Of a stretch of 4,210 nt of DNA, positions 567 to 3,919 are shown piece after piece. The notes under the pieces are model-generated. The model was given only the letters and a program-made list of their open reading frames with translations, did not search any database and was not told where the DNA came from. A program made the translations under genes and the position numbers. This stretch comes from a virus. Taxonomy: Duplodnaviria; Heunggongvirae; Uroviricota; Caudoviricetes. The number at the start of each line of letters is the position of its first letter. Position 1 is the first letter of the stretch. The stretch is from IMG/VR virus record IMGVR_UViG_2657245091_000011; one strand, 5' to 3'.

Positions 567-799
567 AACCCCCCCCCATTTTCACAATCAGTAATCAGGA
601 TGGTTTTAGCCTCATTCAGTGCCATATCAGCACTAAATTGCATAACAGCCAGTGAGTGAGGAACGAAAGCCCCGGGATATTCTGTTTCGCTGGTGGCGTG
701 CTTATGTGCCCTGTCCGCGATAACAGAAATATCAATCAGCGCGTGCATCAGCGTTTTGATGGCTTCGGCGGCTGCGTCCGGTGTGGTTTTATTGTGCAT
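539..799 (-). CDS. hypothetical small protein (86 aa from ATG 799; the track's longer form starts at GTG 841)
   Basis: Within track ORF 539..841; internal ATG at 799..797 has AGGGGG 6 nt upstream, so preferred as the start; E. coli-like codon choice (CTG, GCG, GAA, ACC); C-terminal GGG codons are the G9 tract. Confidence 0.5.
   Translation of the reverse strand: MHNKTTPDAAAEAIKTLMHALIDISVIADRAHKHATSETEYPGAFVPHSLAVMQFSADMALNEAKTILITDCENGGGLCVMIVLIP
569..577. repeat. C9 (plus) / G9 (minus) homopolymer tract at the junction of two ORFs
   Basis: Nine consecutive C at 569-577, read directly from the sequence. Confidence 0.95.
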
Positions 800-989
800 A
801 GGTTTCCCCCTGGCGAATACGGGCGGCAAATACAGCAACACAACCGGACGGGCAAAGGTTACGCGCTTCGCGTTCCGTCCAGGCGGTTACGTGGATGATT
901 TGAGATTCTCCGGCACTCAGTGCCAGAAAACGCCACACAAAGGCAGTTTGTGTGTGCGCCAGACGTGGGGTATGCTGTGTTCCAGCCAT
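789..989 (-). CDS. hypothetical small protein (66 aa), first gene of the minus-strand operon
   Basis: ATG at 989..987 with AGGAG 8 nt upstream; same frame as the 3' end of the 318-aa track ORF; its stop lies 8 nt downstream of the next ORF's ATG (coupled). Confidence 0.4.
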   Translation of the reverse strand: MAGTQHTPRLAHTQTAFVWRFLALSAGESQIIHVTAWTEREARNLCPSGCVAVFAARIRQGETYAQ

Positions 990-1019
990 AATCGTTACTC
1001 CTGTTAACGGTTTGGTTAG

Positions 1020-1053
1020 ACGCCCCGCTACTGCCGCAAACAGTTCGGGGCGT
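1020..1053 (-). promoter_or_regulatory. GC-rich hairpin in the putative 5' leader of the minus-strand operon
   Basis: ACGCCCCG (1020-1027) pairs with CGGGGCGT (1046-1053) around an 18-nt loop; sits between the putative promoter (~1087-1115) and the first ORF; no U-tract follows on the minus strand. Confidence 0.3.
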
Positions 1054-1086
1054 TGTCGTTTACATCCTCTTACTGAGGTGTGATTT

Positions 1087-1115
1087 AAATTAAATTCAAC
1101 TGAATCACAGGTCAA
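1087..1115 (-). promoter_or_regulatory. putative sigma70-type promoter for the minus-strand small-ORF operon
   Basis: On the minus strand, -35 TTGACC (plus 1110-1115), 17-bp spacer, -10 TAATTT (plus 1087-1092); hexamers identified by eye only. Confidence 0.3.
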
Positions 1116-1156
1116 GTGTTTTTTGTGATTCTTTTTTGTGTATACTGAATCACATC
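1097..1156. promoter_or_regulatory. operator-like triple repeat between divergent promoters
   Basis: ACTGAATCACA at 1099-1109 and 1144-1154 (11/11 identical), with an inverted copy TGTGATTC at 1124-1131; centres about 22-23 bp apart; the third copy overlaps the TATACT -10 (1141-1146) upstream of the RHH gene. Confidence 0.5.
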
Positions 1157-1176
1157 TTTTGTTTAGGAGAATGCAC

Positions 1177-1482
1177 ATGGCAAAAAACACTATCAACGAC
1201 AAATCAAAACAGATTTCAATTCGTATCCCACATGATGCTTTTGATGGCATGGAATCCGTAAAACTGGACGGCGAAAGCAACGCCGGATTCATAGTAACCG
1301 CCATGCGCGGGGAGATCGCCCGCCGCCAGGCAGAAGGAAGCAGTGAAAATCCTCTGATTTCTTCTCTCGATGCATTGGCGCAAGTGGAAAAAATTGGTAT
1401 TAAAGCTACGGAAGAACTCGGGCAACTTATCGCCATCGCACGCGAAGAACTCCAGCGCCGCAAGGCCAAAGAAGCGGAATAG
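1177..1482 (+). CDS. small DNA-binding protein, probably ribbon-helix-helix (CopG/Arc-like) transcriptional regulator (101 aa)
   Basis: AGGAGA 6 nt upstream of ATG 1177 (the track's GTG 1138 start is less likely); N-terminal KQISIRIPHDAFDGMESVKL...IVTAMRGEIARR fits a strand-helix-helix pattern by eye; intrinsic terminator immediately downstream. Confidence 0.6.
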   Translation: MAKNTINDKSKQISIRIPHDAFDGMESVKLDGESNAGFIVTAMRGEIARRQAEGSSENPLISSLDALAQVEKIGIKATEELGQLIAIAREELQRRKAKEAE

Positions 1483-1513
1483 TCCACCAGCAAACCACCA
1501 CACTGATCACATT

Positions 1514-1541
1514 GGCCACCGTGACAGGTGGCCTTTTCTTT
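1514..1541 (+). terminator. rho-independent terminator of the RHH gene
   Basis: GGCCACC / GGTGGCC 7-bp perfect stem, 6-nt loop, followed by TTTTCTTT. Confidence 0.7.
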
Positions 1542-1557
1542 GCCTGTTATCCGGCAA

Positions 1558-1588
1558 TTGTGGCGCTTCTTCACACAGTTGATATAAT
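1558..1588 (+). promoter_or_regulatory. extended -10 promoter (TGaTATAAT)
   Basis: TG at 1580-1581 and consensus TATAAT at 1583-1588; weak -35-like TTGTGG at 1558-1563; no protein-coding ORF downstream on this strand. Confidence 0.45.
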
Positions 1589-1594
1589 TCCCCT

Positions 1595-1667
1595 GCACTG
1601 ATCCAATTTTTCGCAGCAGGTTAATTGTTCGCAAGGGCGCTCTGGTAACGGGGCGCTTTTTGTTTTT
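1595..1667 (+). ncRNA. candidate small RNA (~70 nt) between the extended -10 promoter and an intrinsic terminator
   Basis: Promoter about 7 nt upstream; no ATG or SD in the interval; ends at a hairpin plus U-tract; possible 5' stem CCTGC (1592-1596) / GCAGG (1616-1620). Prediction only. Confidence 0.3.
1635..1667 (+). terminator. intrinsic terminator-like hairpin with GUAA tetraloop and U-tract
   Basis: GCGC 1637-1640 pairs with GCGC 1653-1656, extended by C:G and G:U pairs; loop GTAA 1645-1648; followed by TTTTTGTTTTT (1657-1667). Confidence 0.45.
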
Positions 1668-1779
1668 ACCCACCAGCACAATAAAAATCTTCATTTTCCA
1701 TTTTTGTAAAATTTCATGCTTTCCGGACGACTGGCCATATGTCATTTTTTAGCAGAAGATTTTGCCTTGCTGGTGGGTA
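1667..1779. repeat. 113-bp imperfect palindrome: 12-bp perfect inverted repeat plus 9-bp inner inverted repeat around an AT-rich 62-bp core
   Basis: TACCCACCAGCA (1667-1678) against TGCTGGTGGGTA (1768-1779); AAAATCTTC (1684-1692) against GAAGATTTT (1755-1763); 21 of about 26 arm positions pair. Confidence 0.6.
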
Positions 1780-1825
1780 GCTTCTCGGTTAACACGATGT
1801 ACCGTATAATCAGCACCGCGTGTGG

Positions 1826-2404
1826 TTACTGAATACGCTCACCAAAGTAAAACTCAGGCTGATATTCACGTATCAGCCTTTTTTCTTCTTCCTCCAGCTC
1901 ACGCTTTTTGCGCTTACATGCCTGTAGCTCCCTCCCCTTCTGACTAGCACTTAACTGATATTGCTCTTTACGGCGAGAAAAGTCCTGTAATGCGCCCCAC
2001 GGGATACCATAAGCCCCCGTTTTTCTGATTCCTGGTATCACATTCCTGAATACCCAGTTACTGAAACGATGGGCGAATGTGCCTTGCGTCGTTGCTTTGC
2101 GGCTACGGGCTATTAGTTTGTAGAAACCTGACTCAGAGATAATGCTCATATTCTGATTTCCTCCTGGGGTGTAAGTTAAATTTACTCCCTTTTCATCATC
2201 ATCAAGCATCTGCAACGCCGTACGCGAATTGGTCAGTTCCAGCGCAGCGCAGACATCCTTTGCAACAAACCACGGATCGCCGTTCAGATACACCACGCGA
2301 ACGTTCACACTATCAAAGCGCAGAACGACCAGATCACGAAAATCACAGATTTTTTTTACATGACGTGCGTCACCCTTGCCCGTCACGGCAATATTTTTAT
2401 TCAT
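1826..2404 (-). CDS. Bro-N domain protein (phage antirepressor-like N-terminal domain) with a charged C-terminal tail (192 aa)
   Basis: ORF in supplied track; N-terminal region shows Bro-N hallmarks by eye (VVYLNGDPWFVAKDVCAALELTN...DDDEK...SESGFYKLIARSRK...FSNWVFRNVIPGIRKTGAYG); GAGG about 10 nt upstream of the ATG. Confidence 0.75.
   Translation of the reverse strand: MNKNIAVTGKGDARHVKKICDFRDLVVLRFDSVNVRVVYLNGDPWFVAKDVCAALELTNSRTALQMLDDDEKGVNLTYTPGGNQNMSIISESGFYKLIARSRKATTQGTFAHRFSNWVFRNVIPGIRKTGAYGIPWGALQDFSRRKEQYQLSASQKGRELQACKRKKRELEEEEKRLIREYQPEFYFGERIQ
1856..1884 (+). terminator. plus-strand terminator-like hairpin embedded in the 3' end of the Bro-N gene
   Basis: GGCTGATA (1857-1864) / TATCAGCC (1871-1878) 8-bp perfect stem, 6-nt loop, then TTTTTT (1879-1884); the opposite orientation has an interrupted U-tract. 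Confidence 0.4.
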
Positions 2405-2680: not shown

Positions 2681-3919
2681 TCAACCATTTACTACTCTTA
2701 AACCTTTCATACCACCGGATCTATTAATTACCCCTTTTCTCGCATCATCAAAAAAATCACCGACCCATTGCATCATGATCTTACGCTGTTCTAGATAAAT
2801 AGTTCTATTATAAATATCTCTTATTTTATCACCACTTTTATGCGCCAATGCAGCCTCGATTACATCGGGGTTAAATCCCTCCTCATTTAAAAGCGTACTC
2901 CACATTGAACGAAAACCATGTAACGTTACAATCCCTTTGAACTTACTGGCAGCAATTGGGGTCTTGATAGTATTCCTCCCCATAGGCGCATCTTTTGTTC
3001 TGGAGGAAAAAAACACATAACGCCCTCTTTTTATTTCCTGCATTGTTCTGAGGATACTAATAGCCTGTGATGACAAGGGAACAACATGTTCACGATGGCA
3101 TTTCATTTTATGCGCGGGGATAATCCACAAGCCAGAATCAAAATCAATCTCTGACCACTCTGCTTTAATCGCCTCACCTGGCCTGACCATTGTCAATATC
3201 TGGAATAAAAGTGCATTATGAGCTATTTGATAGGTATGAGGCACACTATCCCACCAGCTCAGAAATTCAGGCAATCTTTCAACAGGTAGTGCTGCTAATG
3301 ATTTATTTTTCTTTCCTGTGAATGCAGTCTTTATCTTAAGTAATGGATTTGCTTTCAATGCTCCACAATTTACAGCATAATTCATAATTTCATTTAATCT
3401 TGATATTAATTTTTTTTGCAACGCATTCTTATCGGATACGGCATCCAGAGCATTAATAGCTACTGGTGCTGTAATTTTTTCTATACTGTACTTACCAAAG
3501 AAAGGAACAAGATATTTGTATACTTCATATTCGATATTATACAGCGTAGGTTTCCGCAATTCAGATCCCTTTTTAAAAGCGAACCATGCATTAGCAACAG
3601 CTTCAAATGTCTGTAGATTTTTTAGTGACATCTCAATTTTACGATTTTTCTTCTCCGTCACTGGATCAACTCCACGTGCAATCATTCGCCGAAGTTCATC
3701 ACGTACTTCCCGTGCTTCCGCGAGTGAGAATTCAGGAAAACGTCCTATCGTGTATGTCTGCCGTTTCTTCGTTATCGGATGGCTATAACGGAAACGCCAC
3801 ACTTTCCCACCGGCTTTACTCACATTCAGCAATAAACCGAACCCATCATAAACGGCATAGTCCTTTTCACGTGGTTTCATCCCCTTAACTTCAGTCACGG
3901 TTAATGGCTTTACCGACAT
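2681..3919 (-). CDS. int: site-specific tyrosine recombinase / phage integrase, P4/CP4-like family (412 aa)
   Basis: ORF in supplied track; N-terminal arm-binding-type region (KPLTVTEVKGMKPREKDYAVYDGFGLLLNVSKAGGKVWRFRY); C-terminal catalytic motifs HGFRSMW (H-x-x-R) and IRDIYNRTIYLEQRKIMMQW containing the likely catalytic Tyr; GAGGG 6 nt upstream of the ATG. Confidence 0.93.
   Translation of the reverse strand: MSVKPLTVTEVKGMKPREKDYAVYDGFGLLLNVSKAGGKVWRFRYSHPITKKRQTYTIGRFPEFSLAEAREVRDELRRMIARGVDPVTEKKNRKIEMSLKNLQTFEAVANAWFAFKKGSELRKPTLYNIEYEVYKYLVPFFGKYSIEKITAPVAINALDAVSDKNALQKKLISRLNEIMNYAVNCGALKANPLLKIKTAFTGKKNKSLAALPVERLPEFLSWWDSVPHTYQIAHNALLFQILTMVRPGEAIKAEWSEIDFDSGLWIIPAHKMKCHREHVVPLSSQAISILRTMQEIKRGRYVFFSSRTKDAPMGRNTIKTPIAASKFKGIVTLHGFRSMWSTLLNEEGFNPDVIEAALAHKSGDKIRDIYNRTIYLEQRKIMMQWVGDFFDDARKGVINRSGGMKGLRVVNG

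Follow-up and report, generated by a model that had tools for sequence, protein, structure and literature searches.

Lambdoid phages in which a Rec module is missing are rich in Chi sites, and RecBCD improves growth in at least one such case (PMC12315714). We describe here a 113-bp imperfect palindrome at positions 1667 to 1779 of a 4,210-nt stretch of DNA from a virus of the Caudoviricetes (IMG/VR record IMGVR_UViG_2657245091_000011; the whole stretch is referred to as the window), in which each of the two 12-bp outer arms is the Escherichia coli Chi octamer, GCTGGTGG, together with identical flanking bases (T-GCTGGTGG-GTA). The palindrome belongs to a phage satellite. Like the Chi-rich lambdoid phages, this satellite is a temperate E. 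coli element in which the exact octamer is over-represented and in which no recombinase or RecBCD inhibitor is recognisable (PMC12315714). The prophage in which it resides has the fused protease-capsid head type of LLS, mEp213 and Gifsy-2, and the cosN sequences are similar (GGGCGGCGCGGA here and GGGCGGCGCGCT in the phages; PMC12315714). Unlike those phages, however, the present element is a satellite of ~10 kb, and two of its Chi sites form the arms of a palindrome. Moreover, most Chi sites of the phages are in one orientation and clustered toward the right end (PMC12315714), whereas those of the satellites examined here are about balanced.

The palindrome lies well inside the 10-kb genome of the satellite, and ~90 bp are enclosed between its two Chi sites. 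Inward-facing Chi sites are reported to protect rolling-circle plasmids or linear fragments from RecBCD, in the classical work of Dabert, Ehrlich and Gruss, of Kuzminov, and of Dabert and Smith. The arrangement seen here is similar in that an enzyme arriving from either side would be switched off before it reached the enclosed DNA. It differs in that the enclosed stretch is too short to be a recombination cargo, and in that the sites are internal and away from DNA ends. A second comparison is with the bacterial interspersed mosaic elements (BIMEs) or repetitive IHF-binding palindromic (RIP) elements of E. coli, in which inverted repetitive extragenic palindromic (REP) units flank an IHF site. 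As in these elements, inverted GC-rich units surround an AT-rich segment of ~60 bp in an intergenic position after a gene, but the arms of the palindrome are Chi and not REP, and it is not dispersed around the chromosome.

On balance, we think it probable that the palindrome is a composite, in which an opposed Chi pair of a Chi-saturated satellite brackets a conserved element found at module junctions. The anatomical part of this account we hold with considerable confidence. The features on which it rests are listed below in window coordinates.

1633-1660, plus strand: terminator-like hairpin and T-run of a candidate small RNA (sRNA), immediately left of the palindrome
1667-1678, minus strand: left outer arm TACCCACCAGCA, carrying Chi (GCTGGTGG) on the minus strand at 1670-1677
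1684-1692, no strand: left inner arm AAAATCTTC, inside 1683-1700 (AAAAATCTTCATTTTCCA)
1706-1729: left conserved block of the core element, GTAAAATTTCATGCTTTCCGGACG (family consensus CAGRATTTCRTGYTWTCCG), from the profile match and per-column information content
1730-1741: central part of the variable spacer, ACTGGCCATATG, in which the sequence varies and the length is kept
1742-1766: right conserved block of the core element, TCATTTTTTAGCAGAAGATTTTGCC (family consensus TCATTTTTCAGCAAAATATTCTGC)
1755-1763, no strand: right inner arm GAAGATTTT, part of the right conserved block
1768-1779, plus strand: right outer arm TGCTGGTGGGTA, carrying Chi (GCTGGTGG) on the plus strand at 1769-1776
1826-2404, minus strand: Bro-N (antirepressor-type) gene, with its stop codon at 1826, separated from the right arm by 46 nt

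The anatomy described in an earlier sequence-only reading was confirmed. The outer (12-bp) and inner (9-bp) inverted repeats are both exact reverse complements when read from the sequence, the 62-bp core between them (1693-1754) is AT-rich with CATTTT-like repeats, and the candidate sRNA, whose terminator-like hairpin ends at 1660, lies directly upstream. The inner and outer arms are joined by an asymmetric internal loop of 5 x 4 nt, so that the palindrome is not gapless, and the offset of the arms by one base means that a statistic for a gapless 25-nt arm does not apply. The palindrome lies in the 3′ flank of the Bro-N gene on the minus strand, and sits between two convergent units, the sRNA (plus strand) and Bro-N (minus strand).

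Chi sites in the palindrome arms and across the satellite

The window matches E. coli O45:H2 FWSEC0003 at 100% identity, and is there part of a ~10-kb island (locus L001, 4592-14604). The island encodes a tyrosine integrase, an AlpA-like helix-turn-helix protein, Bro-N, YlcI/YnfO, an Icd-like protein and DUF4222, as well as a RepA-family helicase, SSB and a fusion of a ClpP-like prohead protease with the major capsid protein. It interrupts the gene for the terminase large subunit of a lambdoid prophage, which is left as two pseudogene halves, and the fused protease/capsid gene of the island is its own variant of that of the resident prophage. A cosN-like sequence (GGGCGGCGCGGA), along with ~90 bp around it, is present in near-identical copies at L001 5430, within the island, and at L001 16237, within the prophage, where it lies between Rz and the DUF1441/terminase genes. 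Since this cos-like region is common to the island and the prophage, the island is a cos-type phage satellite with its packaging site outside the window. Two related islands, L158 and L162, adjoin a truncated terminase large-subunit gene, which indicates the same insertion site, judging from the flank, while L216 is inserted in a P2-like prophage and L217 at tRNA-Pro.

Ranking of all octamers in the 10,013-bp island placed Chi first, with 13 copies against 0.26-1.9 expected under Markov models of orders 1-4. Chi was also the top octamer in two related satellites, as listed here together with the counts for the flanking DNA.

Present island (L001), 10.0 kb: 13 Chi; flanking prophage, 14.3 kb: 8 Chi
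Related satellite L216, 11.0 kb: 10 Chi, top octamer; flanks, 4.0 kb: 0 Chi
Related satellite L217, 10.4 kb: 8 Chi, top octamer; flanks, 4.6 kb: 2 Chi

The two orientations of Chi were about balanced, with 8:5 in the present island and 5:5 and 4:4 in the two relatives, which fits the presence of an inverted pair. Further copies in the window lie at 1484-1491 (minus strand), just past the YlcI/YnfO gene, at 689-696 (plus strand) and at 3251-3258 (minus strand). In the related island L158, four Chi sites on the same strand fall within ~400 bp of the equivalent non-coding intergenic DNA. None of the island's small proteins matched a recombinase or a Gam-type protein in Pfam or PHROGs, and the RefSeq product names of its other genes held no Rec or Gam annotation.

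The two Chi copies in the arms are in opposite orientation, and both face inward. We took the active orientation of Chi from the orientation rule for lambda (PMC12315714), applied to the cosN-like site of the island at L001 5430. By this rule, the Chi in the left arm is oriented to be read by RecBCD moving from left to right in window coordinates, as would an enzyme that enters at the open right end. The Chi in the right arm would be read solely by RecBCD moving from right to left, opposite to the direction expected from cos.

The core element and its position at module junctions

The AT-rich core of the palindrome is a diverged copy, ~65 bp in length, of a non-coding element (70-nt model) that is common to phages and satellites. 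A search with the 70-nt profile using nhmmer matched L001 12227-12289, equivalent to window 1706-1768, with E = 1.3e-13. We gathered 104 distinct copies by pattern scans of viral contigs and profile search, and a distant search with the palindrome gave matches of 80-84% to 1710-1765 in >200 further genomes. Members of the family share a layout of CAGRATTTCRTGYTWTCCG, a variable spacer of fixed length (~17 nt) and TCATTTTTCAGCAAAATATTCTGC, and the spacer reads TGGCCA, TGGTAA, TGGTCA or TGCTCA among close relatives. The right block is far more strongly conserved than neighbouring synonymous sites, and the copy in the window is the most diverged of the family in this block. The element is missing from DLP12 and Qin, two prophages of K-12. 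Rfam 15 gave no match at E <= 1 in the window and none at E <= 0.1 in five core-bearing loci, and neither the block sequences nor a description of the element was found in Rfam or in the searchable literature; the conserved element that follows endolysin genes appears to be undescribed. The right block, read as CAGCAAAATATTCTG, would agree at 14 of 15 positions with the published consensus for Lrp, YAGHAWATTWTDCTR.

The two blocks are related by a dyad of 14 positions, 11 of which pair across the 104 copies, against 28-53% in slid controls. Changes within the dyad comprise one double change from G-C to A-U, in the lineage of the window, and transitions compatible with G.U pairing. RNAalifold predicted a long-range stem for the family, on the plus strand only, that was weak (-3.5 kcal/mol). 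The inner arms of the palindrome derive from this weak dyad symmetry of the element itself, to which a partial duplication of the left block has probably contributed. The segment at 1683-1700 (AAAAATCTTCATTTTCCA), aligned by eye, would be the degenerate partial duplicate. In L003 and in the first copy of L158, CCACCAGCA directly abuts the left block. Tandem Repeats Finder reported no scoring tandem repeat at the proposed duplication.

Copies of the element occupy a recurring set of genomic positions. In phiP27 and its relatives, the element has on one side a small lipoprotein gene, with which the lysis cluster ends, and on the other the L33/HNH/terminase genes, and the annotated cos of phiP27 is ~800 bp away. 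In Shiga-toxin phages of the 933W/P13374 type and in lambda-like prophages of O157, the match begins 1-2 nt past the stop codon of the endolysin gene, and these endolysin-type copies sit upstream of a P22-type antirepressor gene. The match table had suggested a position inside the lysozyme gene, which was rejected on finding that the match starts after the stop codon. In phages generally, the right block, read on the late-sense strand (the equivalent of the window's minus strand), starts 1-15 nt past the stop codon that ends the last lysis gene. In phage-inducible chromosomal islands (PICIs) of the EcCICFT073 type, the element follows the last gene and is separate from the two lambda-type cosN sites of these islands, and it is also carried by other satellites of the present family. 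The GER2 phage has two copies, of which the first follows the endolysin gene and the other is upstream of terS. Two copies in direct orientation, ~245 bp apart, flank the sRNA gene in L158 (2100-2620). Just left of the element, near the island end, the EcCICFT073-type PICIs L004 and L005 (2925-2965) carry four GTGAC repeats with a spacing of ~10-11 bp, which could be arm-type integrase sites or other protein-binding sites.

The sequences that adjoin the element are mosaic. Clustering of the flanks of 170 copies gave 21 clusters on the left and 10 on the right. At least 5 distinct left flanks are combined with the endolysin flank, and at least 8 with the phiP27-type lipoprotein flank. The element marks a module junction. 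Its neighbours include three families of the antirepressor type (P22_AR_N, Bro-N and Rha), in varying relative position, and we found no homology between the ant gene of the Shiga-toxin phages and the Bro-N gene of the window. Genomes that carry the element have packaging systems of four kinds and replicons of several. According to the modular theory of Susskind and Botstein, lambdoid genomes exchange modules, and boundary sequences have reportedly been seen in HK620 and other lambdoid genomes. The element resembles such boundary or 'linker' sequences in being a short conserved non-coding stretch exactly where mosaic homology starts or stops. It differs from them in having blocks, a fixed spacer and a dyad, and in having a right block conserved above the neighbouring coding DNA, which suggests a function beyond that of supplying homology.

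Transcription units may also end near the element. Among 71 unique endolysin-type copies, 70 have a strong intrinsic terminator 53-62 nt beyond the element on the late-sense strand. These terminators comprise at least three unrelated hairpin sequences that differ between phage groups (for example, L009 3425-3560 and L215 4484-4640). The same order of gene, element and terminator is seen after Bro-N in L162, and the arrangement looks like a 3′ untranslated region (3′ UTR) on the minus strand of the window. Taken together, these observations fit a 3′-UTR RNA element, a DNA site for a host factor or a recombination linker, and do not separate the three.

Several other identities for the core were considered and rejected. 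A conserved hairpin or terminator in the central spacer was not supported (mean z = -0.22 over the 104 copies), with good hairpins confined to the PICI type and a few others. Small open reading frames through the core on both strands reach a stop after 4 codons (L004) or 8 codons (endolysin type), and some copies have no start. A sigma-70 promoter across the blocks was dismissed, as there were no acceptable hexamers or spacing on either strand. The anti-sRNAs AgvB and AsxR are located 3′ of PR′ and differ from the core in sequence, and the Pas sRNAs, set apart by position alone, are apparently distinct. The peaks EcOnc10, EcOnc11 and EcOnc12 from Hfq crosslinking and analysis of cDNA (Hfq-CRAC) have a suitable spacing from AgvB-type sRNAs, but are found beyond Rz, at a distance of 1.5 kb from the element. 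In O157 Sakai, the copy at 1777983-1778050, which has the endolysin gene ECs_1784 before it and the terminator after it, was not among the 63 orphan Hfq-bound sites found in uninduced cells (Tree et al., 2014).

The hairpin and competing explanations

Dinucleotide shuffling of the window produced a perfect 12-bp inverted repeat within 150 bp in 15 of 300 shuffles, and the outer-arm repeat by itself is therefore only marginally unusual. The surrounding stretch of 126 nt folded to -37 kcal/mol as plus-strand RNA (z = -4.5), -36.9 kcal/mol as minus-strand RNA (z = -4.3) and -20.3 kcal/mol as DNA (z = -4.6), and none of 200 shuffles was as good in any of the three cases. Of 5426 complete E. coli genomes, about 52-56 carry the full palindrome at 95-100% identity, and it is thus not a chance feature of a single sequence. 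It had been proposed that arms of this kind are unlikely to arise by chance. The fold of the whole stretch and its conservation bear this out, but a 12-bp repeat on its own occurs in 5% of shuffles, and the arms are the commonest octamer of the island. Since the outer arms are the most over-represented octamer, selection for Chi explains them as well as selection for a hairpin.

Comparison with relatives gave little indication that the hairpin is maintained. Five relatives with intact arms were 91-99% identical with invariant arms, and are uninformative; 92 of 500 shuffles scored as well for pairing as the real alignment of relatives. L162 retains the core together with the right arm and the flank on the Bro-N side, but its left side is much diverged and the left arm has become CCAATTGA, without Chi. 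The left inner arm of L158 reads AAAATCCTC, and the changes in its inner arm and core are uncompensated. L163 lacks the region, and L164 has a clean deletion equivalent to window 1665-2112 (at L164 2650-2665); both keep the same regulatory and replication genes (RepA/DUF4222/SSB). For copies of the core in other elements, predicted folding did not exceed that of shuffles (z from +1.0 to -1.4). The suggestion that the palindrome is a structured RNA domain is weakened by the divergence of the left arm in L162 with flanks retained, which is part of what the sequence-only reading had itself named as refuting, by the uncompensated changes in L158 and by the shuffle-like folds of other copies. We conclude that the hairpin itself is probably not the functional unit but a lineage-specific by-product, which perhaps arose by inverted duplication or by quasi-palindrome correction.

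These results bear on the possibility that the palindrome acts as RNA, either as a 3′-UTR hairpin of the Bro-N message (minus strand) or through read-through of the sRNA (plus strand), where it could mark a site of processing, insulate the convergent units or make the message more stable, with the core as a 3′-UTR element or a 3′-UTR-derived sRNA. The strong predicted fold on both strands argues for such a role, as do the terminators that follow the endolysin-type copies and the L162 copy, the pairing of the dyad with its double change and G.U-compatible transitions, and the weak stem predicted by RNAalifold. However, a U-tract is absent after the palindrome on both strands (the next letters are GCTTCTCGG on the plus strand and AAAACAAAAAG on the minus strand), neither Rfam nor the Hfq-bound sites of uninduced cells yielded the element, and phages and PICIs carry it in different orientations with respect to the adjoining genes. 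Together with the loss of the left arm in L162, the uncompensated changes in L158 and the unremarkable folding of other copies and of the spacer, this makes an RNA role for the palindrome rather unlikely. An intrinsic (Rho-independent) terminator was rejected outright, as there is no U-tract and the terminator scan did not report the palindrome. It is also possible for the core to be a protein-binding site, as the sequence-only reading had listed, given two strongly conserved blocks at a fixed distance across a variable spacer, the dyad that relates them and the apparent resemblance of the right block to the Lrp consensus. The arms would then be incidental. Occurrence of the element with four packaging systems and several replicons argues for a generic partner, and since it occurs alongside unrelated regulators, the protein would probably be a host factor, presumably of the nucleoid or architectural kind. 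On the other side, no promoter-like arrangement for sigma-70 was found, the half-sites are ~45 bp apart from centre to centre, which is unusual for a single dimer, and in its right block the copy in the window has diverged more than any other. We regard this explanation of the palindrome as doubtful.

Two other proposals fared worse. An AT-rich core with short repeats and flanking inverted repeats is what might be expected of a replication origin or of the cos site of the satellite, and in phiP27-like phages and GER2 the core does lie between lysis and terminase genes. Yet the cos-like site of the satellite, at L001 5370-5470, nearly matches that of the prophage upstream of its terminase genes, no cosN-like sequence occurs within 1667-1779, the cos of phiP27 is annotated elsewhere, and the PICIs L004 and L005 have a separate canonical lambda-type cosN. 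A PICI-type origin was rejected, because the region is 2.2 kb from RepA and is missing from L163 and L164 despite their RepA/DUF4222/SSB module, and because the core is found in phage late regions and at PICI ends with other replicons. A cos site or an origin at the palindrome is thus very improbable. The footprint of a miniature inverted-repeat transposable element (MITE), or a chance palindrome, would account for inverted termini around a short non-coding core, and the frequency of 12-bp repeats in shuffles is compatible with the latter. Full-length copies, however, occur only at the syntenic position in related satellites, with a median of one place per genome; the additional places match the core only in part, and belong to other prophages and satellites. 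There was no visible target-site duplication at the palindrome ends, where the flanks are TTTTT and GCTTC. Together with the number of genomes that carry the palindrome and its fold (z = -4.5), this renders either origin scarcely credible.

The remaining one of the five unranked functions that had been proposed, a recombination site, comes nearest to the evidence, for a reason that had gone unnoticed, namely that the arms are Chi; the set of five was borne out in part. In the composite account that we favour, RecBCD would enter at a free DNA end, such as an open cos end or the tail of rolling-circle replication of the satellite. On meeting Chi from its 3′ side, the enzyme would stop degradation and load RecA. 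The left arm would serve enzymes moving from left to right, the direction expected from cos, and the right arm those moving the opposite way, so that both converge on the core. DNA beyond Chi would be spared and exchange stimulated there, beside a sequence shared with helper-type phages and satellites. We infer that RecBCD would act on the arms in vivo, and that this action may have a role in module exchange.

Several points weigh against this account. Apart from the Chi octamer itself, the two arms have 4 further bases in common, and another 9 pairs come from the inner arms; this extra pairing means that either a duplication event or selection for pairing has occurred. The inward orientation of the two sites offers no obvious advantage over Chi placed anywhere. 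The orientation bias of Chi in the island is weak (8:5) in comparison with the strong bias in the Chi-rich phages (PMC12315714). The strongly conserved right block must have a function of its own that lies outside this account, and conservation of the palindrome in five relatives that are 91-99% identical says little either way. A more tentative proposal takes up the function of the core: it may be a widespread, undescribed element with its own role, as a late 3′-UTR RNA or a host-factor site, that Chi brackets have turned into a RecBCD-proof exchange hotspot in the present satellites.

Neighbouring features and implications

The candidate sRNA next to the palindrome (~1583-1660, plus strand) has an extended -10 element (TGATATAAT), a first hairpin and the terminator at 1633-1660. 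Matches were found in 235 genomes, far more than carry the palindrome. Nearly all cover the sRNA stretch (~1514-1664), and homology ends at 1664-1668. L003 has a diverged sRNA, with a different first hairpin and the same layout, on the other side of the conserved element. The candidate sRNA had no match in Rfam. In L164, the deletion fuses the sRNA terminator to the middle of Bro-N, with loss of the palindrome and of the C-terminal third of Bro-N.

An open frame of 318 codons (789-1745, minus strand) has its ATG inside the palindrome core (1745-1743). Running antisense to both the candidate sRNA and YlcI/YnfO, it stays in frame as it enters the Icd-like gene, annotated at 66 aa. In relatives, RefSeq lists 'icd-like' or hypothetical pseudogenes over this stretch, and phrog_29966 (188 positions) matches the Icd-like part with its C-terminal end only. 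The frame may be an annotation artefact or may encode a longer product. In the divergent promoter region between the Icd-like operon and YlcI/YnfO (1095-1160), TGAATCACA occurs twice and its complement, TGTGATTC, once, and these look like operator repeats.

Two features lie within or next to the Bro-N gene. A strong terminator-like hairpin (2450-2430, followed by a T-run) is found on the minus strand at 2404-2464, after the AlpA-like gene has ended and before Bro-N begins. As this terminator is ~25 nt before the Bro-N start, Bro-N could be expressed only if the terminator were read through or antitermination occurred. On the plus strand at 1805-1890, a perfect TATAAT (1805-1810), without a good -35, is followed by a terminator-like hairpin and T-run (1856-1890). 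The hairpin is antisense to the 3′ end of Bro-N, and 1790 to ~1855 is kept in all relatives that carry Bro-N (the alignment ends there). A short antisense RNA may be encoded here.

Chi itself and phages rich in it have been described before; a satellite family saturated with Chi, and Chi as the arms of a palindrome, vary this theme. If the arms act as Chi, the Chi-rich strategy that relies on RecBCD would extend from phages to phage satellites. That Chi is the top octamer in all three satellites examined would then provide a handle on how such elements survive RecBCD and recombine with their helpers. If the Chi-bracketed core is indeed an exchange hotspot, it would drive satellites and helper-type phages to exchange the neighbouring modules for antirepressor and immunity functions, and whatever the core does would bear on late-gene expression and module exchange in Shiga-toxin phages and their satellites.

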